Below, piece by piece: positions 4,472 through 63,101 of a stretch of 64,000 bases of DNA. The position numbers and the translations under genes were made by a program. The stretch is from sequence record PP445229.1; one strand, 5' to 3'. Origin of the DNA: Escherichia phage EC.W2-6. The notes under the pieces were generated by a model, which had not been told where the DNA came from, searched no databases, and saw only the letters and a program-made list of their open reading frames with translations. Numbering within the stretch: the stretch's first letter is position 1; each line of letters opens with the position of its first letter.

Positions 4472-4669
4472 ATGAAAAAGTGGATTGTTCGTGTACATGA
4501 TAACACGACTGGAGAGTTAGTAGCTGTAGATTTTGTTAAGACTCGAGAGCACGCACGTAGGGTCAAAAATCAATACAAATCTACTTTTAGACTTAATAAG
4601 GTTACACTAGGAAAAGCTATCGTGAATAGTGAAGGTGCTTTTTGTGTTAACAGTAAGGTTTATTATTAA
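4472..4669 (+). CDS. small protein, tandem paralog 1 of 3 (C-terminal KVYY)
   Basis: 65 aa; shares TR..AR..K core and C-terminal KV.YY with the next two ORFs. Confidence 0.45.
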   Translation: MKKWIVRVHDNTTGELVAVDFVKTREHARRVKNQYKSTFRLNKVTLGKAIVNSEGAFCVNSKVYY

Positions 4670-4878
4670 TGAGACCGATCACTATGAGACAATTTTGGTT
4701 AGCAAAGATTAAGTGGGCATCAGGTGGTATGACTATGACTGCACTACTCACTCGTCAACAGGCTCGAGATTTTAAAAAGTCTATGTTCAATGTAGACTTA
4801 ACTAAGAGCATCAGTATTCATAAGGCCAAGGAGTATTCTTCTGGTCGTGTTTATATCAGCGGAAAGGTACATTACTAA
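4669..4878 (+). CDS. small protein, tandem paralog 2 of 3
   Basis: 69 aa; TAATG stop-start overlap; ends GKVHY. Confidence 0.45.
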   Translation: MRPITMRQFWLAKIKWASGGMTMTALLTRQQARDFKKSMFNVDLTKSISIHKAKEYSSGRVYISGKVHY

Positions 4879-5087
4879 TGAAAAAGATGTGGGCTATTCA
4901 TGTTGTTTGGGATCTTGAGCAACACATGAGAAAAGATAACATCAAATTGTTTGACACTCGCAAAGAGGCTCGTATTGCTAAGAAACAGTTGAAGACTCTG
5001 GGCACAATAGTAAAAAGCGCTGACATACATCGCTGGTATGAAGACCCTAACACTGGTTCTTTTATGTCTAAAGTAATTTACTACTGA
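4878..5087 (+). CDS. small protein, tandem paralog 3 of 3
   Basis: 69 aa; TAATG overlap; ends KVIYY. Confidence 0.45.
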   Translation: MKKMWAIHVVWDLEQHMRKDNIKLFDTRKEARIAKKQLKTLGTIVKSADIHRWYEDPNTGSFMSKVIYY

Positions 5088-5111
5088 TTGGTAGTAGATA
5101 TGATAACTCTC

Positions 5112-5122
5112 AAATGTATATA
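5112..5122 (+). promoter_or_regulatory. candidate phage-specific promoter element (AATGTATA motif)
   Basis: AAATGTATATA about 40 nt upstream of ATG 5160. Confidence 0.3.
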
Positions 5123-5159
5123 GAGTACAATAAGAATTTGTATTTTACAGGAGAGAGTT

Positions 5160-5489
5160 ATGTTAGATTTGAGTAAAGTGGCCCCGCCCACTGAAGAGAT
5201 TACAAAATCCAAGGTGATGCAACAGTTTTATCATCGTGATATGCTTGGTCGCTTTATCAAGAATCGTGATGTTGTTGCTTGGTCTATTGGTAATCAGGGA
5301 TATCTGTTGAAGGTTCTTCAGGTTACAGGCTCAACTGCTAAGCGAGTTAAGGTGTATGACCCTGAAATGGGGCGTTCTAAGTCAGTAGACCCACAGAACT
5401 GCATCGTAATTACCCAGCAGGTAATGGATAATATTGCACGTAACGTTGCTAACTCAGTTGAACTTGATGGAGAAAACCCAAATGCATAA
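5160..5489 (+). CDS. hypothetical protein
   Basis: ORF with GGAGAGAG RBS; no recognisable motif. Confidence 0.4.
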   Translation: MLDLSKVAPPTEEITKSKVMQQFYHRDMLGRFIKNRDVVAWSIGNQGYLLKVLQVTGSTAKRVKVYDPEMGRSKSVDPQNCIVITQQVMDNIARNVANSVELDGENPNA

Positions 5490-6584: not shown

Positions 6585-7241
6585 ATGAATGAACAACTAC
6601 AAGCAACATTAATCGAAGCTATGGGAAGTGATCGTAGCGTAGTAAACGCAGCTCGAGTTTCCTTTGGCGTAACCCGTGAAGGTGATTTAAATGAACGTGA
6701 TGAACGTCTCATCAACTTTCTCGCAAGAGAGAAGCATGTTACCCCATTCCGACACCCGCAAGTCAGTTTCCGATGCAAAGCACCTATCGCAATTGCGAGA
6801 CAGCTGGGCAAGCATCAGGTTGGATTCTCGTGGAACGAAATGTCCCGGCGGTATAAAGATGGAGCAGTTGAAGTCTTCATCCCTAAAGAGATTTTTGCGA
6901 GACCTTCGGACCTCCATGCAGGTTCAGGGATTCAACTCATCGACGGAGAGCGAGCTGAAGCATTAATGCTGATTAATGATGCATATGAAGCTTCTCTAGC
7001 AGCATATGACAAGTTGATTGAATTTATTGCACCAGAGCAGGCTCGATTTGTTCTTCCTCAGGGGATGATCACTGAGTGGGTGTGGACTGGTTCTTTGTAT
7101 GGCTGGTTTGAGTTGTGCCGTCAGCGACTCTCCTCTCACGCTCAATATGAAGTTCGAGTGTTTGCTAAATCTCTAGATGAAGAGATGGCTAAACTCTACC
7201 CAATCTCGTGGGCAGCTCTGAAGAAAACTTTGGAGAGTTAA
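6585..7241 (+). CDS. thyX: flavin-dependent thymidylate synthase-like (ThyX)
   Basis: AARVSFG N-terminus and ARQLGKH...SWNEMSRRY region resemble the ThyX signature (RHR...S.RY), with H replacing RHR. Confidence 0.6.
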   Translation: MNEQLQATLIEAMGSDRSVVNAARVSFGVTREGDLNERDERLINFLAREKHVTPFRHPQVSFRCKAPIAIARQLGKHQVGFSWNEMSRRYKDGAVEVFIPKEIFARPSDLHAGSGIQLIDGERAEALMLINDAYEASLAAYDKLIEFIAPEQARFVLPQGMITEWVWTGSLYGWFELCRQRLSSHAQYEVRVFAKSLDEEMAKLYPISWAALKKTLES

Positions 7242-8363: not shown

Positions 8364-8535
8364 ATGTGAAGGAACAAACCTTCATTTAAGTAACAAGGTT
8401 ATCAGAGAGCTTGCCAAAGGCTCTCCAACCAAAGGGAAGAACAAACGATTTACTAACGTCAGGGTTTATACAGCAATCTGCAAAGACTGCTTAACTACTG
8501 AGTGTCATTACGAAGAAATTGGAGAGCGTAAATGA
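8350..8535 (+). CDS. small zinc-ribbon protein
   Basis: CSRCEG...CKDC; overlaps neighbours. Confidence 0.4.
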   Translation: MKCSRCEGTNLHLSNKVIRELAKGSPTKGKNKRFTNVRVYTAICKDCLTTECHYEEIGERK

Positions 8536-9269
8536 GTCGTCGTCAATCACGGAAAGAATCACGGAAAGACCTTCGTCGAGAAGCACTTGTTACTCGTAAG
8601 GGTAAGCGAGAGTATGAAGAGGTGGTTTTAGCAAAGCCTGTAGTCCCTCAGAACCAGTTTCAGTCTGAGCTACTCAATGCTATTAAGACTAAACAAGTTG
8701 TGTTCACAGACGCTCCTGCGGGCTGTGGTAAGACCTTTGTAATCACTTCCACGGTTATTGATGCACTGAAGAGTGGTAAGATTCAGAAGATCATCCTGAG
8801 TCGACCTTCAGTTGGCATGGGTAACTCTCTTGGGTTACTTCCGGGAGGAATGCGTGAGAAGTTTGAACCATACCTGATGCCTATCATTGATGTTATTACT
8901 CAGCGATACGGTAAGGGATTCTATGAATGCCAAATCGGAAATGGTAACATTGAATTTGTACCTCTGGAATATCTCCGTGGTCGCTCTTTCAACGATGCCA
9001 TTGTTATCGTAGATGAGTTCCAGAACACAACTAAGGATGAAGCCTTCTCCATCATGACTCGATTGGGAGAAACCTCTCAATTGTTCTGTATGGGTGATAC
9101 AAACCAGCATGATATGCGTGGTCGCGAGAGTGGTCTAACTTGGGCTACTAACTTTATTGATGAACACGATCTGTATGAGTTTGCTGAGATTGTAGATGGT
9201 GAATCAGATGATATTGTTCGTTCTGGTTTCTGTAAGGCGATTGTTAAAGCAATGGAAAAGAAAGCTTAA
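8532..9269 (+). CDS. phoH: PhoH-like ATPase
   Basis: Walker A DAPAGCGKTF and PhoH-like length/layout. Confidence 0.8.
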   Translation: MSRRQSRKESRKDLRREALVTRKGKREYEEVVLAKPVVPQNQFQSELLNAIKTKQVVFTDAPAGCGKTFVITSTVIDALKSGKIQKIILSRPSVGMGNSLGLLPGGMREKFEPYLMPIIDVITQRYGKGFYECQIGNGNIEFVPLEYLRGRSFNDAIVIVDEFQNTTKDEAFSIMTRLGETSQLFCMGDTNQHDMRGRESGLTWATNFIDEHDLYEFAEIVDGESDDIVRSGFCKAIVKAMEKKA

Positions 9270-17195: not shown

Positions 17196-17546
17196 ATGCA
17201 AAACACATTAAGTGATAACTTAGGGTTTATCGTTTTCTCAGCTCTTGTATTCTTTGGTGGTATGAAGTTTAACGAATATCAAACAGACAGCAGTAATCTG
17301 GACAAAGAGAAGCACCAGCAAGAGTTAGAGATTGAAAGAAGTAGAGCAGCTGATGAAGTTGCTCAGAGAGTTCTTACCGGTTTATCTAACTGGAAGAAGA
17401 ACACAGAAACCGTTTATAAAGAGATGCATTATGAGAAAACTAAACCAGTTTTTTATGATGTCTGCGCTAGTGATGACTATGTCCGCATGTTCAATGATCG
17501 ACAGCAGCAGGCAATCAATGCCCTTACCAACAAACCTAAAAGCTGA
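17196..17546 (+). CDS. candidate i-spanin (Rz-like)
   Basis: N-terminal TM helix then coiled-coil; overlaps next ORF in another frame. Confidence 0.45.
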   Translation: MQNTLSDNLGFIVFSALVFFGGMKFNEYQTDSSNLDKEKHQQELEIERSRAADEVAQRVLTGLSNWKKNTETVYKEMHYEKTKPVFYDVCASDDYVRMFNDRQQQAINALTNKPKS

Positions 17547-17690
17547 ATGCAGGGTTGACTTACCTTTTTTAGAGAGTGCTCAAGGAAAAGCACTAGCCAC
17601 TACGTTGGAGTGGTATCAGGACCAGTACACAGAATGTGCTGCCAATCACAATGGATTGTTAGAAGCTCTGAAAGAGCGTGGAATAGAATA

Positions 17691-17691
<1 letters not shown>
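17431..17691 (+). CDS. candidate o-spanin lipoprotein (Rz1-like)
   Basis: MRK...ALVMTMSAC lipobox-like signal; begins in +1 frame inside the preceding ORF. Confidence 0.4.
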
Positions 17692-20077: not shown

Positions 20078-20882
20078 GCTCCCTGAAGTTGCTATAGTGG
20101 ACGCTGACGTTCTTCGGTATGAAGTGGGCGCTCTTACTCAGGAGCATCCCTTTCTTGACACAGGACGTGTTCCAGTTGATTACAATTTCATGATTGAACG
20201 ACTTCAGTACAAGATCGATACAATCATAGCTCGCTCGGGTTGTAGTAAGGTTGTATTCTACTTCAGCGAAGGTGGTAACTTTCGTTTCGATGTTGCTAAG
20301 CAACAAGACTACAAGGCAAATAGACCTCCCGGAGAAAGACCTTTTCACTGGCAAAACGTTGGCGATTACATTAAAGCCAAGTACGAATATGTTGAGGTCT
20401 TTGGGAGAGAAGCTGATGATGCATTAGCTGAAAGGCAACGTAGGGATAAGAATACTATCATCTGTACTAGAGACAAGGATTTGTTGATAACTCCCGGATG
20501 GCATTATCGCTGGGCTTGTGGAGAAAGACAGAAAGAAGTACCTCCTCATTATGTATCTGACTTGGTATCATGGCAAAATTTCTTCTATCAAATGTTGATT
20601 GGGGATGGGACAGATAACATTCCCGGATGTGGTGAACGTAAAGAAGTTATGTGGGGCGGTAAGCTCCAGCTACGACGTCAAGGTGTCGGGAAGAAAGCAG
20701 CAGCTAGTCTGTTGGCTGGTGTTGCAGATAAGTGGACCATGTATCATATAGTACGAATGGAATATTATAAGAAGTTCGATACTGAAGATGAAGAGAAGAT
20801 GCTCGAGAATGCTCGGCTTCTCTTTGTTGGTCAGACTCCGGAAGACCTGTTCGACTGGACATGGTTAGATAAATCTTGGTAA
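20064..20882 (+). CDS. 5'-3' exonuclease / flap endonuclease (T7 gp6-like)
   Basis: VAIVDADVLRYE and IICTRDKDLLI resemble FEN motifs; start uncertain (20040-20064). Confidence 0.65.
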   Translation: MEEVKLPEVAIVDADVLRYEVGALTQEHPFLDTGRVPVDYNFMIERLQYKIDTIIARSGCSKVVFYFSEGGNFRFDVAKQQDYKANRPPGERPFHWQNVGDYIKAKYEYVEVFGREADDALAERQRRDKNTIICTRDKDLLITPGWHYRWACGERQKEVPPHYVSDLVSWQNFFYQMLIGDGTDNIPGCGERKEVMWGGKLQLRRQGVGKKAAASLLAGVADKWTMYHIVRMEYYKKFDTEDEEKMLENARLLFVGQTPEDLFDWTWLDKSW

Positions 20883-30253: not shown

Positions 30254-31036
30254 TTACTTTACACCAATGCTAGCCAGACGTCTGAGCACTGCTTGTGTTT
30301 GTGGACTGTACTGAGAACCTGCTGCATGTGGTGCACTTGCCCTCTGAACTGTTTGAGAAGTGGGAGGTTTACCAGCAAGCATAGCAGCTACCCCTAATAC
30401 TGCATTACCAAAGTTCTGTTGAGGTTTCTGATTTTCGCCTTCCTGCACTTCATCAGAGTAAAACTCTACTGGATTTCCACCTAAAGCACCTGTCTTAGAA
30501 GCAGCAATCTCTGCCTGAGTTGGAGCTTGTGCGGCCTTCTCTCTATCTAACAAGTCAGGACTAAACTGATTGACTGGTTGAACAGCTTGCAAAGCTCCAA
30601 CAGGGTTAGCAATCTGAGAAGCTGCATCACCATAGAAAGGAAGAAAGTGTTTATTGTTCATGGAGTCAAGAGCTTGTGGAGTAAACCCCTTTTTACCAGC
30701 GAACATTTGCTTAGCTCCACCGATACCTTCTGAATAACCAACCATTGCTTTCTTAACATCACCATTAAAAGCTTTTAAGTTATCTCTTATGTAACGAGCG
30801 CCCATATCAATATTCTTTGCTGGGTCAAGTCTATCTTCTAGTTTGTAACCGTAATCTTTAGCCAACCCTTTACTGATCTGCATTAAACCTACAGGACCAG
30901 TTCCAGAGGCCACTGTAGGACGACCACTGGACTCTCTTTGGATGACAGCATGAATCAAAGCAGCAGGAATCCCATACTTCTTTGAAGCTTGCTGTACCAT
31001 TGGGTCTAGTTCTTCGATACCCATTCTGATTGCCAT
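30254..31036 (-). CDS. lytic transglycosylase (SLT domain) virion protein
   Basis: RESSGRP...GLMQIS SLT motif. Confidence 0.75.
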   Translation of the reverse strand: MAIRMGIEELDPMVQQASKKYGIPAALIHAVIQRESSGRPTVASGTGPVGLMQISKGLAKDYGYKLEDRLDPAKNIDMGARYIRDNLKAFNGDVKKAMVGYSEGIGGAKQMFAGKKGFTPQALDSMNNKHFLPFYGDAASQIANPVGALQAVQPVNQFSPDLLDREKAAQAPTQAEIAASKTGALGGNPVEFYSDEVQEGENQKPQQNFGNAVLGVAAMLAGKPPTSQTVQRASAPHAAGSQYSPQTQAVLRRLASIGVK

Positions 31037-37457: not shown

Positions 37458-37676
37458 TTAAGGTAGTATCTTTCTCAGAGCGTTAGATTCAGCATCAGGG
37501 CAAATAACAACTAAGTTATTTTGAATTGTTCTCTGCTTGCATTGAGAGCTAAGCTTCTCTACTGGAGCAGGGACAGTTACTAATGGATGAACTGCGCCTA
37601 CAGGAACTGCGGTGGATACCACAACACCTGCGCCTAAACATATTAAACCATATGCAGCTTGTTTCATCATTTTCAT
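37458..37676 (-). CDS. small membrane/secreted protein (possible holin or lysis accessory)
   Basis: N-terminal hydrophobic segment AAYGLICLGAGVVVSTAV; adjacent to endolysin. Confidence 0.4.
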   Translation of the reverse strand: MKMMKQAAYGLICLGAGVVVSTAVPVGAVHPLVTVPAPVEKLSSQCKQRTIQNNLVVICPDAESNALRKILP

Positions 37677-55296: not shown

Positions 55297-55325
55297 TTGA
55301 CACCGAAAACAGCCTGATTCATAAT
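55297..55325 (+). promoter_or_regulatory. sigma70-type early promoter
   Basis: TTGACA, 17-nt spacer, CATAAT; near-duplicate of promoter at 55599. Confidence 0.55.
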
Positions 55326-55598: not shown

Positions 55599-55627
55599 GT
55601 TGACAGCGAAAACAACATGATTCATAA
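55599..55627 (+). promoter_or_regulatory. sigma70-type early promoter
   Basis: TTGACA, 17-nt spacer, CATAAT. Confidence 0.55.
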
Positions 55628-57779: not shown

Positions 57780-58000
57780 TATTCAGTAATAATTTTGGCA
57801 AGTGTCCTATTTGTGAGAAACATCGCAGCACGGGAAACCATCGCAAATGTAGTAAGATATTACAGCGCCAACGTGATAACAACCATTGGGATACTGTACA
57901 CGCTAATCAGCGTAAAGAAGAAGTTAAAGAAATGGCTGTTAAAGCATCCTTTGCCCAATCCACCCGTATTGAACACATCCAAAGGTATCAAGCATTATGA
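57776..58000 (+). CDS. early small Cys/His-containing basic protein
   Basis: CPICEKH...HRKC; ATGA overlap. Confidence 0.4.
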   Translation: MIFSNNFGKCPICEKHRSTGNHRKCSKILQRQRDNNHWDTVHANQRKEEVKEMAVKASFAQSTRIEHIQRYQAL

Positions 58001-58206
58001 TCACTAATATTTCAGAGTTTAAGAAAGCGCCTTCTCGTCTGTTAGGTCGTCGTGTTGTGTATCTTTATAGCAATAAAGGTAAAGCTACAACTGGACGAAT
58101 TACAACAGTAAGTAGTGTTACTAAAGGTTTGCTCAAGTTATGTGTAGCTATGGACGATGGTACAATCCTGCTACGCAGTTGGAAGTCATTTAGTTTACTC
58201 GATTAA
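57997..58206 (+). CDS. early hypothetical protein
   Basis: ORF, ATGA overlap. Confidence 0.4.
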   Translation: MITNISEFKKAPSRLLGRRVVYLYSNKGKATTGRITTVSSVTKGLLKLCVAMDDGTILLRSWKSFSLLD

Positions 58207-58275
58207 GTTATTTGTTCAAGCCTGTCACCTTGATGGGCTTGCCCGATATAATTTATCACTAAAAGGAATAAGGTT

Positions 58276-58719
58276 GTGGCTAAATCTAAAATCAGCATGA
58301 AGGGCGGGCGTTGTTTTTCTATATCTGAACTGGAGAAAGAGAATCCAAAGGCAACCAATCACGTCAGCAAGCGTAGTTTAAAACGTCGTGCTGCAAAGGC
58401 TGAAGCTGAATCCCATATCCCTTCTAGTGTGGCAAAACGTGTAGGCCATCGTGTCCATCGTGCTGATGCGTTATTGTTAGCCGATCATAAACGTTCTTTG
58501 TTAAAGAGCGGGGGAGCAAAAACAGAAGAGGAGAAGAAGTTAGAAATCTTCTGTAATGGTCGCACCCGTGGTAAACAGAAGTTTAAGGGTAGCACGAAAG
58601 ACCCGCAGGCTTTTCCTAAGACAAGCCAGTGCGCACCTGATGTTTTCTACGCAGACAGTAAACACAAGTGGGGCGTTGAAAAATACATTGATCCCATCAA
58701 AGAGGCGAGGGTAAAATGA
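58276..58719 (+). CDS. early basic protein (GTG start)
   Basis: AAAAGGAATAAGG RBS then GTG; Lys/Arg-rich. Confidence 0.45.
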   Translation: MAKSKISMKGGRCFSISELEKENPKATNHVSKRSLKRRAAKAEAESHIPSSVAKRVGHRVHRADALLLADHKRSLLKSGGAKTEEEKKLEIFCNGRTRGKQKFKGSTKDPQAFPKTSQCAPDVFYADSKHKWGVEKYIDPIKEARVK

Positions 58720-58889
58720 TTTATTCAGAGATTCTAAATAAAGTCAGAGAGATGCGGCAAGGTGATGCAGTAGTTGATGTTCTGGTCCATCTGGTAGCAT
58801 CCTTGCAAGAAGAAAACGAATTGGTTAAACAAGAAAACAAGGCATTAAGGAAGGCAATAAGTAACCTCTCCAATAGCCTCTCTTTTTAG
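58716..58889 (+). CDS. small coiled-coil protein
   Basis: 57-aa ORF, ATGA overlap; two terminators downstream. Confidence 0.3.
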   Translation: MIYSEILNKVREMRQGDAVVDVLVHLVASLQEENELVKQENKALRKAISNLSNSLSF

Positions 58890-58945
58890 TACTATGACGC
58901 TCTTTCTGTCGCGTCGTGCCCTCTCCCCATTTGAAGCTTCCGCAT

Positions 58946-58968
58946 AGCCGCCTTTGAGCGGCTTTTTG
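58946..58968 (+). terminator. intrinsic terminator
   Basis: AGCCGC-CTTTGA-GCGGCT then TTTTTG. Confidence 0.55.
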
Positions 58969-59030
58969 CGTTGCTGTAAGTGCATTTGCGAGTGTATTTA
59001 TAGCAACGGTCATGTGTTGCTTTCAGGTTT

Positions 59031-59056
59031 GCCCCGGCTACGGCTGGGGCTTTTTT
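59031..59056 (+). terminator. intrinsic terminator
   Basis: GCCCCGGC-TACG-GCTGGGGC then TTTTTT. Confidence 0.7.
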
Positions 59057-59105
59057 ATGCCCGTAAAACAGGAGGTATCAAGTTCTGATAACAACGGCAC
59101 AGCTA

Positions 59106-59495
59106 ATGTTGACATTGACTATTTATTATGAGGCAGGGAATCAGCCAACCGCATGTAAGGCTTTAGTTGCGGATACCGTGATAAATAGAATGGCCCAACG
59201 AAAACTGACCGCTGAACAGGTGATAAGACAAAAGAACCAGTTTGAGTGGATTCCGGTACTATTAAAACAGGAGAAACCTTATAAACGTTATGTAAAGCTG
59301 ATTCGTGATAAAAATCCGATGACTAAGCAAGCCATTGGAGAAAGCGAGCGGCTGGCTAAACGTGCCCTTAAGAAGAATTATGTTCCGCTGTACAGTGGGA
59401 CTTACTTTCAGAGTAAGAGCGAAGGGGTGCCAAAATGGTATGCCAATCCTATGTATTGTGGTGATTTAGTATTTGATAATAGCTCTAGGGAATAA
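59106..59495 (+). CDS. SleB/CwlJ-like cell-wall hydrolase domain protein (tentative)
   Basis: YYEAGNQP...KALVADTVINR and ...KWYANPMY resemble Hydrolase_2 family blocks. Confidence 0.45.
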   Translation: MLTLTIYYEAGNQPTACKALVADTVINRMAQRKLTAEQVIRQKNQFEWIPVLLKQEKPYKRYVKLIRDKNPMTKQAIGESERLAKRALKKNYVPLYSGTYFQSKSEGVPKWYANPMYCGDLVFDNSSRE

Positions 59496-59694
59496 TCACT
59501 AGTGCCAGATTTGACAAACTAAATTCCTTTATAAACCAACCACTTAGTAAATTTATTGAAAAAGATGGTAGTATTCTGGGACTATGGGTAATGCTCTGTA
59601 TATAGACCCTTTGAAAATTTCTTAGAAAATAAGTTTACTAAATATAACTTACTTAAATAATATTACTTTTAATCTCTGATAAAGGGTAAATAAT

Positions 59695-59991
59695 ATGACT
59701 TTAGAAGTATATAAATTCCTTTTTGTAAGCTGTTTAACTATCAGCGTTCTAGGATTTATTGTTCTAAGAAACAAAGCAGCAAGCTGGGAAAGAATGTATA
59801 AATCCCTAGTCCGAGTGGATGAGATGTATAATGAGAAGGTTAAAGTAACACTCAACGATCTTATTATGCAAGTTGAGGACAGAAACAAGCGTCTTCAGAA
59901 CCTCAATCACGAAGTGTTACGCCTTGCTCGTGCTAATGAAGACTTGCGAATAGCTATTGCTAAGCAGCAGGAGATTAACAGTGATAATTGA
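59695..59991 (+). CDS. membrane-anchored coiled-coil protein
   Basis: N-terminal TM (FLFVSCLTISVLGFIVL) then heptad-rich region. Confidence 0.4.
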   Translation: MTLEVYKFLFVSCLTISVLGFIVLRNKAASWERMYKSLVRVDEMYNEKVKVTLNDLIMQVEDRNKRLQNLNHEVLRLARANEDLRIAIAKQQEINSDN

Positions 59992-59992
59992 T

Positions 59993-60217
59993 ATGAACAA
60001 CGCCCCAAAGGTTTTAACTCTTGGGGATTTAGAATCAGGTGATGTATTCCAGTTCCCTCTGGATGGGGAGAATTACTATATGTTATCTAGTCAGAAGTTT
60101 GGGACAACAGACAAGAGAAGTTATATCAATCTTTCCTGTGGCGTTATTGCAACGGATGAAGGTAATACAGTCATCAAGAAGGTCAGCAATGCTCGGCTTA
60201 CCAATAAGGTGGATTAA
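59993..60217 (+). CDS. small protein, GD(V/L)F paralog family member 1
   Basis: LTLGDLESGDVFQF; internal ATG fits family N-terminal length. Confidence 0.45.
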   Translation: MNNAPKVLTLGDLESGDVFQFPLDGENYYMLSSQKFGTTDKRSYINLSCGVIATDEGNTVIKKVSNARLTNKVD

Positions 60218-60219
60218 CA

Positions 60220-60456
60220 GTGAAAGTTAATATTAAATCCGATCGTACAATGCTTCGCTTAAACAACATGAAGCCGGGCGTTCTATTTGAGCGTAAAGAA
60301 TCCCTTTACATTAGAACCGACACATTGTACGCAGACAATTATGTCAACTGTGTTGATGTGGTAACTGGAAAGCTCATTCCTTTTAAACGGGATGAAGTCT
60401 GCCAAGTACGCAGCGATCTCCACATAACTAACATAGAGGCTAAAGATGAAGATTGA
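60220..60456 (+). CDS. small protein, paralog family member 2 (divergent)
   Basis: MKPGVLFERKESLYIRTDTLYADNYVNCVDVVTGKL. Confidence 0.45.
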   Translation: MKVNIKSDRTMLRLNNMKPGVLFERKESLYIRTDTLYADNYVNCVDVVTGKLIPFKRDEVCQVRSDLHITNIEAKDED

Positions 60457-60703
60457 TTTGAAGGTAAATGAACCATCTTTGTGTGTTGGTGATCTCAAAC
60501 TTGGAGATGTATTCCAAATCAGGGAAACACGAGCAGATTTCTACATGGTTGTTCAGCTATTTACCTCACAGATTGAAGAGACCAAGCCTTCTGATGGGGG
60601 TTGTGTCGTCCTTAGTCTGACAAATAAGCAAGTCCTTAAGCTTAGCTCGAAAAGCAAGGTTGTTCTTCTTCATGATGTTGTTATTACTAACAAGGGCAAG
60701 TAG
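60446..60703 (+). CDS. small protein, paralog family member 3
   Basis: LCVGDLKLGDVFQI. Confidence 0.45.
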   Translation: MKIDLKVNEPSLCVGDLKLGDVFQIRETRADFYMVVQLFTSQIEETKPSDGGCVVLSLTNKQVLKLSSKSKVVLLHDVVITNKGK

Positions 60704-60922
60704 ATGGAAATTAAAGTAGTTGATTATCCTAAATATGCAAATGCAGAAGATGTTAAAGGTGGTGATGTTTTCTCTTACGACAGACGTTTCTGGCTGATGT
60801 TAGAAGATAAAACTCCCGATGGTTTATGTAAGGCCGCCAATCTGAACAGCGGTTCTGTTGAAGTCTTCGGTCTATCAACCACTGTTATGCCACGCCCTGA
60901 TCTGTGTTTATCCCAAAAGTAA
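60704..60922 (+). CDS. small protein, paralog family member 4
   Basis: GGDVFSYDRRFWLMLEDKTPDGLCKAANLNSGSVEVFG. Confidence 0.45.
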   Translation: MEIKVVDYPKYANAEDVKGGDVFSYDRRFWLMLEDKTPDGLCKAANLNSGSVEVFGLSTTVMPRPDLCLSQK

Positions 60923-61280
60923 CATCGACTTATAGCCCTTGTGTTTATCAGAGGGCTATGTGAGGGTGTTCCTCATTAACTTATTAATTCAGGCATATGC
61001 CACACCGCTAGGGAGAGCTTGCTCGAACATCCGGTGTTAGACTAAAACCTGTTCAATTTCGGTAGACTTTCCACTACGTAGGGGTACGTATTGGTTTGGG
61101 ATTCAGGAGATCTCCTAGGGGTAGGAGGTCTTCACCAGTTGGGATAAGAGATAGCTCTAGAACCTGAACTCTTAGGCAGAGAGGGTCGGCAATGAGTACG
61201 AGGTCAGAATTAGCCTCCTGACTAGGGCTATCCCTTATATCAACTGGCAATAATGCCTCCACTAATAAAGAGAGAACGTT

Positions 61281-62585: not shown

Positions 62586-62661
62586 GCGCTCTTAGCTCAA
62601 TGGATAGAGCAGTAGCCTTCTAAGCTATTGGTTACAGGTTCGAGTCCTGTAGGGCGCACCA
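62586..62661 (+). tRNA. tRNA-Arg (anticodon UCU), CCA encoded
   Basis: Cloverleaf by hand: 7-bp acceptor GCGCTCT/AGGGCGC, D-arm GCTC/GAGC, anticodon stem GTAGC/GCTAT with loop CTTCTAA, T-arm ACAGG-TTCGAGT-CCTGT, then ACCA. Confidence 0.85.
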
Positions 62662-62801: not shown

Positions 62802-63101
62802 ATGAGTTGGGGTGGTGTAATATCCTTAATCTGTATCTTCCTTGTCTGTATAGCCCTTACAGGCTGCGTACAGAGTCGTCCTGATGGATGGTGTGCAGTA
62901 GCAGTGGAAGGTGTTTGTGTTTCTCGCTGGCATAAAGGTAAGAAGGTTCCTTCTGGTGAAATTGATATGCGCTGGAACGGAGCAACCTGCTCTAATGCTA
63001 ACCCTTCTATCAACGAAGAGAAATCTACACCGGATAATGTTGTGATTGATACAGCGTTGTGGTGTGGTGGCTCTGTAACAACAACCGGTAAGGAGTGGTA
63101 A
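62802..63101 (+). CDS. lipoprotein (Cys-rich)
   Basis: Signal peptide with lipobox IALTGC; TAGGAGGT RBS. Confidence 0.5.
   Translation: MSWGGVISLICIFLVCIALTGCVQSRPDGWCAVAVEGVCVSRWHKGKKVPSGEIDMRWNGATCSNANPSINEEKSTPDNVVIDTALWCGGSVTTTGKEW

Follow-up and report, generated by a model that had tools for sequence, protein, structure and literature searches.

A leaderless SleB/CwlJ-type (Hydrolase_2) protein encoded in the early operon of Escherichia phage EC.W2-6

The early, host-RNA-polymerase-transcribed operon of Escherichia phage EC.W2-6 contains a gene whose product is a leaderless single-domain protein of the SleB/CwlJ (Hydrolase_2) family, the orthologue of phiEco32 gp117 and SU10 gp116. We analysed this gene within a window of 64,000 nucleotides (the whole stretch examined, from sequence record PP445229.1). 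The reading we favour, tentatively and at a probability of about 0.4, is that the product is a low-abundance cytoplasmic lytic transglycosylase of the SleB type that would stay inert until the holin opens the membrane and would then help the GH24 endolysin. The protein is a real, correctly recognised and already annotated member of its family in a well-known phage genus; what is added here is a corrected start codon, a context of attenuated expression, the distinction between leaderless and signal-bearing architectures, and conservation of the gene independent of the canonical endolysin.

Domain assignment and fold

The coding region lies at the following positions of the window:
59106..59495, plus strand: open reading frame in the form annotated in GenBank, 129 aa, ATG start
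59085..59495, plus strand: likeliest coding region, CTG start, 136 codons plus stop, Hydrolase_2
59130..59132, plus strand: GAG, coding for the glutamate predicted to be catalytic (E9 in the 129-aa form, E16 in the 136-aa form)

A megablast search with positions 58000-61000 gave 100% full-length identity to Escherichia phages EC.W8-1 (PQ030848.1, in which a position equals the window position plus 3000) and EC.W14-3, and 85-96% identity to about 100 further genomes in the group of phiEco32 and SU10 (Kuravirus, Gordonclarkvirinae). The EC.W8-1 record labels the product of the reading frame at 59106-59495, XDJ04181.1, 'hypothetical protein'. Both phiEco32 gp117 (YP_001671862) and SU10 gp116 are 100% identical to it, over the 129 aa as well as over the 136-aa extended frame; they occupy the same position in the early cluster, and their records start at the ATG. 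The domain assignment is already public at annotation level: UniProt entry A0A0B4N207 (SU10 gp116) is named 'Cell wall hydrolase SleB domain-containing protein', and the GenBank records of ShigP1, Paul, EcP-vB and XT18 state 'cell wall hydrolase'.

The sequence-only reading had noted a resemblance to the Hydrolase_2 (SleB/CwlJ) family and named a profile search as one way to check it. That search returned Pfam PF07486 (Hydrolase_2) at 32.2 bits (E 1.7e-7) against a gathering cut-off of 27 bits, over residues 13-114 of the product and positions 2-85 of the 100 in the profile, and homologues bear precomputed PF07486 matches. The product also matched PHROG 12974, a family of unknown function, over its full length (E 1.7e-89), and the 'endolysin' family phrog_938 weakly (E 1.9e-7); an NCBIfam search gave no meaningful match. 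With the single sequence, phmmer against the PDB found only noise; a profile built from 33 diverse family members had as its sole PDB matches the SleB catalytic domains 4F55 (E 4.3e-16) and 4FET (E 1.6e-15). An AlphaFold2 model built on the 33-sequence family alignment reached a mean pLDDT of 91.7 and a pTM of 0.88, and Foldseek matched it in the PDB to the same two SleB structures only (probability 1.00, TM 0.56-0.63, about 135 columns), the next match having an E of 2.8. Among the viral models of the BFVD library the SU10 protein ranked top, followed by dozens of phage 'SleB' models. The Hydrolase_2 assignment is thus confirmed, well beyond chance.

The Kuravirus protein shares with Bacillus SleB (4F55, 4FET) the fold, the N-terminal helix-Glu-helix core and the position of the catalytic glutamate. 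Whereas SleB carries, besides a signal peptide, a peptidoglycan-binding domain at its N-terminus and has the muramic-delta-lactam spore cortex as its substrate, the Kuravirus protein is a bare catalytic domain, about 16% identical to SleB, with an extra helical segment (residues ~55-95) and a leucine in place of the histidine of the SleB motif 'GKHIFC'. Bacillus CwlJ, judged by description, is likewise a single-domain, leaderless Hydrolase_2 protein of similar size, but it is a spore-coat protein that Ca-dipicolinate activates, a context that has no counterpart in a coliphage. The catalytic glutamate of CwlJ superposes on that of SleB (PMC12331253).

Predicted active site

Only two columns are invariant in the 33-sequence alignment, whose mean column identity is 23%: the glutamate encoded at 59130-59132 and an arginine 19 residues after it. 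Positions holding Y, V, Q, F and W are nearly invariant. The glutamate, at the end of helix 1, is unchanged in both family alignments, sits in a strictly conserved 'IYYEAGNQP' motif and pairs with the glutamate of 'YGES' in the SleB structures 4F55 and 4FET; we take it to be the counterpart of the published catalytic residue, E157 in B. cereus and E151 in B. anthracis, with which the chain-offset arithmetic is consistent. A catalytic glutamate has been reported as essential in SleB (PMC12331253). A glutamate in the equivalent position is required for toxicity to E. coli in the Type VI secretion effector T6EC3, which has the SleB fold but differs from the phage protein in being delivered into a rival's periplasm and paired with an immunity protein, and in not coming from a phage (PMC11148199). 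The toxicity of T6EC3 indicates that the SleB fold can act on ordinary Gram-negative murein.

The C-terminal part of the domain departs from the family pattern. SleB ('GKHIFC') and most relatives keep the histidine of a 'GxHxFY/C' motif, a secondary motif that is not known to define the family; in the Kuravirus clade and its nearest relatives this histidine is replaced by leucine ('CGDLVF'), and the same proteins have 'YFQS' where many relatives show 'YFH'. Because the histidine is lost and the Pfam match ends at position 85 of 100, full catalytic competence is not certain.

The start codon

The ribosome-binding sequence upstream of the two candidate starts is:
59070..59075, plus strand: Shine-Dalgarno sequence AGGAGG, 9 nt before the CTG at 59085 and 30 nt before the ATG at 59106

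Every Kuravirus genome in the alignment has a purine-rich Shine-Dalgarno sequence (AGGAGG or GGGGG) with this spacing. The seven codons 5' of the annotated ATG, which encode LITTAQL, vary only synonymously (ACA/ACG, GCA/GCC) among eight Kuravirus/Suseptimavirus genomes, and the ATG itself is replaced by CTT in the ECBP2-like, SU7, 4E8 and MLP3 genomes. At the codon equivalent to the CTG, a relative with 72% identity, encoded on a metagenomic contig of 96 kb, has a TTG start with AAGGAGG upstream; a TTG start also occurs in a more distant relative. Read from the CTG, the N-terminus (M-ITTAQLMLTLTIYYE) is in register with those of relatives such as 'MISTAVLYIALTTYHE', 'MISTAVLY..' and 'MLTTAALL..', and in the AlphaFold model residues 4-17 lie in helix 1 with pLDDT above 90, so that the N-terminal extension would form the first turns of that helix. 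Given an extension that varies only synonymously, the TTG starts in relatives and an N-terminus in register, we conclude from the alignments and the model that the true start is most likely the CTG at 59085, 21 nt upstream of the ATG at 59106. The product would then be a 136-aa protein with a computed mass of about 15.8 kDa and a pI of about 9.7, and its predicted N-terminal peptide would be (f)MITTAQLMLTLTIYYEAGNQPTACK.

Initiation at CTG is very weak in E. coli, which implies a low dose of the protein. The start codon also matters in practice. Certain database records begin at a later methionine and give a product of 101 aa that is without the catalytic glutamate, and the structure-library model of one such shortened entry fails to superpose (TM 0.28); cloning the protein as an enzybiotic from these annotations would yield a truncated protein.

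Early transcription and the upstream hairpins

The signals upstream of the gene are:
55297..55318, plus strand: sequence identical to the -35 and spacer of an early sigma-70 promoter of SU10, located about 3.8 kb before the gene
55600..55621, plus strand: second match identical to an SU10 early sigma-70 promoter (SU10 Table S2)
58946..58963, plus strand: first terminator-like hairpin, with a 6 bp stem and TTTTTG after it
58970..59007, plus strand: perfect 17-bp hairpin between the two terminator-like sites
59031..59056, plus strand: strong intrinsic-terminator-like site, GC-rich 8-bp stem GCCCCGGC/GCTGGGGC and a T6 run

Placement of the gene on the early strand, as had been proposed from the letters of the window, agrees with these promoters and with the literature on both model phages: in SU10 the early class comprises CDS69-125, a block that includes this gene (PMC4281155), and the corresponding block of phiEco32 is described as an early cluster (PMC8948821).

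The second terminator-like site ends 14 nt before the Shine-Dalgarno sequence, and folding of the hairpin region gives -66.6 kcal/mol (z = -3.66 relative to shuffled sequences). The site at 59031-59056 is kept in most Kuravirus genomes; the annotation of phage 4E8 has two terminators at the equivalent place and a promoter downstream of the gene, and in Salmonella phage 7-11 an annotated terminator also precedes the homologue. phiEco32 and ShigP1 are without the upstream hairpins because another gene is inserted there, so these structures are common in the group, not universal. An Rfam search around the gene gave nothing near threshold, the sub-threshold matches all falling on the terminator hairpins.

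In the interval from the terminators to the gene, a generic scan for sigma-70 promoters found none, and the promoter of the phage sigma factor gp36, 'TAATGTATA', does not occur upstream of the gene; the nearest site with one mismatch lies inside the next gene, and matches across the window are no commoner than expected by chance. With no promoter-like site between the terminators and the gene, expression depends on read-through. Judged from these signals, the terminator-like hairpins and the CTG start together look like a deliberate attenuation of the gene's expression.

Purifying selection

So damped a gene might be an evolutionary leftover: a former endolysin of prolate podophages, made redundant when the holin-GH24 pair was acquired, barely expressed and functionless. 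The weak CTG start, the terminators directly upstream, the missing promoter of its own and the lost C-terminal histidine motif would all suit such a relic, as would the failure of mass spectrometry to detect the protein in SU10 lysate material (PMC4281155). The pattern of substitution makes it a highly improbable account. The homologous gene was found in 127 phage records and is nearly full length in 118 of them; of about 100 Kuravirus genomes, nearly all have the reading frame free of frameshifts and stops; and dN/dS is 0.07-0.17 across Kuravirus lineages at a dS of up to about 1, so the gene is maintained by strong purifying selection. Conservation extends to the Shine-Dalgarno sequence and to the frame of the N-terminal extension, and phage 7-11 has an M15 endolysin too, so the homologue was probably never a sole endolysin.

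Lysis and entry genes of the phage

Elsewhere in the window the phage encodes:
36937..37428, minus strand: GH24 (T4-lysozyme-type) endolysin, Pfam Phage_lysozyme 111.8 bits, PHROG endolysin
37458..37676, minus strand: holin adjoining the GH24 endolysin, phrog_11161, E 2.6e-49
30254..31036, minus strand: SLT-domain internal virion protein (entry lysin), Pfam SLT 83.4 bits
17196..17691, plus strand: overlapping two-component spanin pair, i-spanin 17196-17546 and o-spanin lipoprotein 17431-17691

The GH24 endolysin is soluble, with no N-terminal membrane or SAR segment and no hydrophobic segment; the holin has a hydrophobic segment at residues 6-37. The i-spanin matches the Rz-like spanin family phrog_1152 (E 5.6e-37), the o-spanin has the lipobox MSAC, and phiEco32 is among the listed phages with two-component spanins (PMC6139136). 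The SLT protein also matches PHROG transglycosylase / internal virion protein and is labelled 'internal protein' in EC.W8-1. The phage therefore has every component of a canonical lysis system as well as an entry lysin, with the Hydrolase_2 protein as a third enzyme; the suggestion of the sequence-only reading that three peptidoglycan-active proteins may coexist is borne out by the GH24, SLT and Hydrolase_2 domains found in the window.

The Hydrolase_2 protein shares with a canonical holin-dependent endolysin that it is soluble and signal-less; it has neither the late expression of such an enzyme nor the linkage to holin and spanins, its gene lying in the early operon while the holin and GH24 genes are at 36.9-37.7 kb on the opposite strand and the spanins at 17.2-17.7 kb. 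A 98-aa protein with a membrane segment and a coiled coil is encoded just downstream (59695-59991), and we considered it as the i-spanin of a hidden lysis cassette. This was rejected: no o-spanin partner lies nearby, and the bona fide Rz-like/lipoprotein pair is at 17196-17691.

Localisation

No signal peptide or lipobox is present in the protein, nor any SAR domain or membrane segment; its 19-residue hydropathy peaks at 0.61. The N-terminal stretch was considered as a SAR domain and rejected, as its uncharged run is only 15 residues long (mean hydropathy 1.14) and has no basic n-region, and as it forms the core helix 1 of the modelled fold. Relatives on viral contigs that are about 30% identical are 146-217 aa long and carry a hydrophobic N-terminal leader before the 'CLAxNIYYEAGNQ' helix; these signal-bearing proteins have the equivalent of helix 1 in addition to their leader. 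With no export signal or membrane segment, the Kuravirus protein would have no independent access to murein early in infection.

This bears on the role first suggested for the gene, early remodelling of the wall or control of superinfection. The early-class location speaks for such a role, as does the fact that the SLT entry lysin and the GH24 endolysin already cover the classical ones. The protein, however, has no route to the periplasm before the holin is triggered, and an unregulated SleB-like activity there would amount to premature lysis, since E. coli rounds and bursts when a SleB-like effector is active in its periplasm (PMC11148199). The PADLOC library of defence systems gave no match between the Hydrolase_2 protein and a defence or exclusion model, and expression is damped rather than boosted. 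We hold wall remodelling and superinfection control to be very unlikely; access at lysis by way of the holin, or a role in the cytoplasm, fits the anatomy of the protein better.

Packaging in the virion, or ejection as an entry lysin, would be another way to reach murein, and a small, basic muralytic domain is what some phages package. The gene, however, is in the early operon and outside the structural module, and the SLT-domain internal protein already fills the entry role. Particle preparations of SU10 yielded 34 detected proteins, among them the 27.5 kDa 'internal virion protein' gp20; CDS116, the orthologue of the Hydrolase_2 protein, was not one of them (PMC4281155). That the SU10 protein went undetected in the particle preparation argues that it is not an entry enzyme, and we give a virion-associated lysin next to no probability.

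Relatives with a different endolysin

When 1.84 billion representative proteins were searched exhaustively with a profile, 76 relatives were found at E up to 1e-3, many of them 130-147 aa long with the match beginning at about residue 8-10. Homologues occur in other, related prolate (C3) podophages: 7-11 gp111, GAP52 gp091 and the homologue in Privateer, each about 141 aa long and 32-36% identical to the Kuravirus protein, are Hydrolase_2 proteins without a leader and lie on the early/middle strand. They differ in having canonical 'YFH/GxHYF' C-terminal motifs, a Pfam score of 61.7 bits and ATG starts, and in that an M15 peptidase is the designated endolysin of these phages, against GH24 in Kuravirus. 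The homologues in Salmonella phage 7-11, Cronobacter phage GAP52, Proteus phage Privateer and others of these podophages are often labelled 'endolysin'. We considered whether 7-11 and GAP52, which are without a GH24 cassette, have this homologue as their only endolysin, and rejected this because 7-11 gp050 is an M15 peptidase; the authors of the Privateer description, too, designate a peptidase as the endolysin. The SleB-type gene is thus retained across lineages whose main endolysin differs (GH24 or M15).

Other leaderless relatives adjoin genes for ProQ-like proteins, DksA/TraR-type zinc-finger proteins and dCTP deaminase/dUTPase, not lysis cassettes.

Possible roles of the protein

In the reading that we favour, the Hydrolase_2 protein would be made in small amounts in the cytoplasm, where it would meet no glycan-strand substrate and so be harmless, and the terminators and the weak start codon would keep an enzyme that may be toxic at a low level. 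Once the inner membrane is opened by the holin at the close of infection, the basic 15.8 kDa protein would escape together with the soluble GH24 endolysin and, as a lytic transglycosylase, would cleave MurNAc-GlcNAc bonds, acting as an accessory endolysin. The exit is feasible: a GH24 endolysin without a SAR domain means that the holin must pass folded cytoplasmic proteins of about 18 kDa, and the 15.8 kDa protein could therefore leave by the same route. The SleB family membership and fold, the invariant glutamate and arginine, the purifying selection, the lack of a leader and the signals of attenuated expression are all consistent with such an enzyme. The pI of 9.7 also fits, a high positive charge being typical of Hydrolase_2 lysins from Gram-negative phages (PMC8223927), and signal-bearing phage homologues are toxic or lytic when expressed (PMC7344957).

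Several observations weigh against an accessory endolysin. Unlike a lysis gene, the gene is early and lies 22 kb away from the genes for holin and endolysin; cleavage of glycan strands would duplicate the bond specificity of GH24, with unclear benefit; and the Kuravirus clade has lost the histidine of the C-terminal motif, the Pfam match stopping short as described above. The leaderless relatives elsewhere lie among early or nucleotide-metabolism genes. Finally, 7-11, GAP52 and Privateer keep the homologue alongside a different main endolysin, which argues for a distinct, non-redundant job that is not necessarily lysis.

Several of these points suggest the main alternative, which we consider possible though unlikely: by analogy, the protein may have a non-lytic role in the cytoplasm during host takeover, either binding or regulatory or acting on soluble muropeptides or wall precursors, any cleavage of the wall at lysis then being secondary. 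T7 lysozyme, gp3.5, is a cytoplasmic amidase of the early/middle phase with a second function as a regulator of T7 RNA polymerase. A cytoplasmic role would suit a leaderless protein encoded in an early operon among small genes of the takeover type, retained in prolate podophages whichever endolysin they have, GH24 (Kuravirus) or M15 (7-11, Privateer), and it would suit the ProQ-like, DksA/TraR-type and dCTP deaminase/dUTPase neighbours of the leaderless relatives; the clade-specific loss of the C-terminal histidine and the helical insert could reflect a changed function. Against it, the strict conservation of the catalytic glutamate and of 'IYYEAGNQP' is what would be expected of an enzyme that cuts glycans, and no cytoplasmic molecule is known to bear the MurNAc-(1,4)-GlcNAc bond cut by lytic transglycosylases. 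A broader proposal, which we judge unlikely, is that the gene belongs to the conserved core of the prolate (C3) podophages, persisting with either canonical endolysin (GH24 or M15 peptidase), and is expressed early at a deliberately tiny dose, from a CTG or TTG start downstream of terminators, for a separate, non-redundant intracellular or timing function. If so, the function would go beyond that of a second endolysin, for example in sensing or processing soluble muropeptides or in regulating a machine of the host or the phage, as T7 lysozyme does.

SleB-domain second lysins in other phages

Many phages of Gram-negative hosts carry a SleB-domain 'second lysin' away from the lysis cassette. phiEco32 and SU10, as well-studied genetic and structural models, are convenient for asking what the leaderless SleB proteins do. 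In Vequintavirinae/Certrevirus the SleB-like proteins CB7_83 and CR3_087 coexist with another endolysin and lie outside the main lysis cassette (PMC7344957); SleB-domain 'second endolysins' distant from the holin are described in T5-like Salmonella phages (PMC11180984) and in Phapecoctavirus (PMC10793346). CB7_83 has a signal peptide, is followed by a candidate holin and is toxic on expression, whereas the Kuravirus protein has neither a leader nor an adjacent holin.

Genes flanking the hydrolase gene

The early-operon gene for the SleB/CwlJ-type (Hydrolase_2) hydrolase has the following neighbors in the window:

58276-58719, plus strand: very basic 147-aa protein, PHROG 11641, upstream of the hydrolase gene
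59695-59991, plus strand: 98-aa protein, PHROG 12154, directly 3' of the hydrolase gene
59981-60922, plus strand: four small ORFs in a row, 72-85 aa each, matching overlapping PHROGs 9955, 7832 and 6570

A single membrane segment occupies the N-terminus of the 98-aa protein (residues ~3-26), and its heptad-rich tail resembles a coiled coil, a topology similar to that of Rz proteins. It had no match in Pfam or PADLOC, and the name "DNA helicase" that it is given in GenBank and in PHROG 12154 looks spurious. The order of Hydrolase_2 gene, ~200 bp gap and membrane/coiled-coil gene is also kept in L088, a 96 kb metagenomic contig with a 72% identical hydrolase, where the latter gene lies at 6620-6904. 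Upstream, synteny of the 147-aa basic protein gene is likewise kept in this distant relative (4927-5373), whereas a 57-aa coiled-coil ORF (58716-58889) located between that gene and the terminator-like hairpins is present in the window only. The four small ORFs downstream all share a G(D/E)VF motif around residue 20 and appear to be early-gene paralogs arranged in tandem.

Lipoproteins and spanin-like genes

Lipoprotein genes were found both in the early region and in the middle-gene block, the latter as part of a spanin pair distant from the holin-endolysin pair:

62586-62661: tRNA-Arg(TCT), adjoining the early lipoprotein gene
62802-63101, plus strand: 99-aa early-region lipoprotein, lipobox LTGC, Pfam Phage_lipoprotein PF24052 (122 bits)
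17196-17546, plus strand: Rz-like i-spanin, phrog_1152
17431-17691, plus strand: 86-aa o-spanin-like lipoprotein, lipobox MSAC, overlapping the i-spanin

The counterpart of the early lipoprotein in phiEco32 is gp106 ("putative phage lipoprotein"). The sequence-only reading had raised a role for the hydrolase in superinfection control; should a gene of this region exclude superinfecting phage at all, the lipoprotein would be a more plausible candidate than the hydrolase. In the EC.W8-1 record the o-spanin-like ORF is shortened to 57 aa (record 20518-20691), and the lipoprotein signal is lost.

Cronobacter phage GAP52 has a further lipoprotein two genes 3' of its Hydrolase_2 gene (4627-5175; 182 aa, lipobox LLGC). 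Its Gly/Ala-rich, weakly hydrophobic segment close to the C-terminus and very basic tail are reminiscent of a unimolecular spanin or, alternatively, of a membrane protein of the glycine-zipper type.

Start sites and names in deposited annotations

In the SU7 and MLP3 phage records the hydrolase is annotated from an internal Met as a 101-aa protein (locus 467-772), a form that contains neither helix 1 nor the catalytic Glu. The BFVD model of the truncated EP335 entry (A0A2Z3DJI5) did not superpose on the full-length hydrolase fold (TM 0.28). Four short ORFs of the EC.W8-1 record, PQ030848.1, have names implausible for their size and position, which are probably over-transferred labels (record coordinates, 3000 higher than those of the window):

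8482-9045: "integrase", 187 aa
13204-13458: "autotransporter adhesin", 84 aa
56806-57069: "DNA polymerase B region", 87 aa
57421-57786: "terminase", 121 aa, early region
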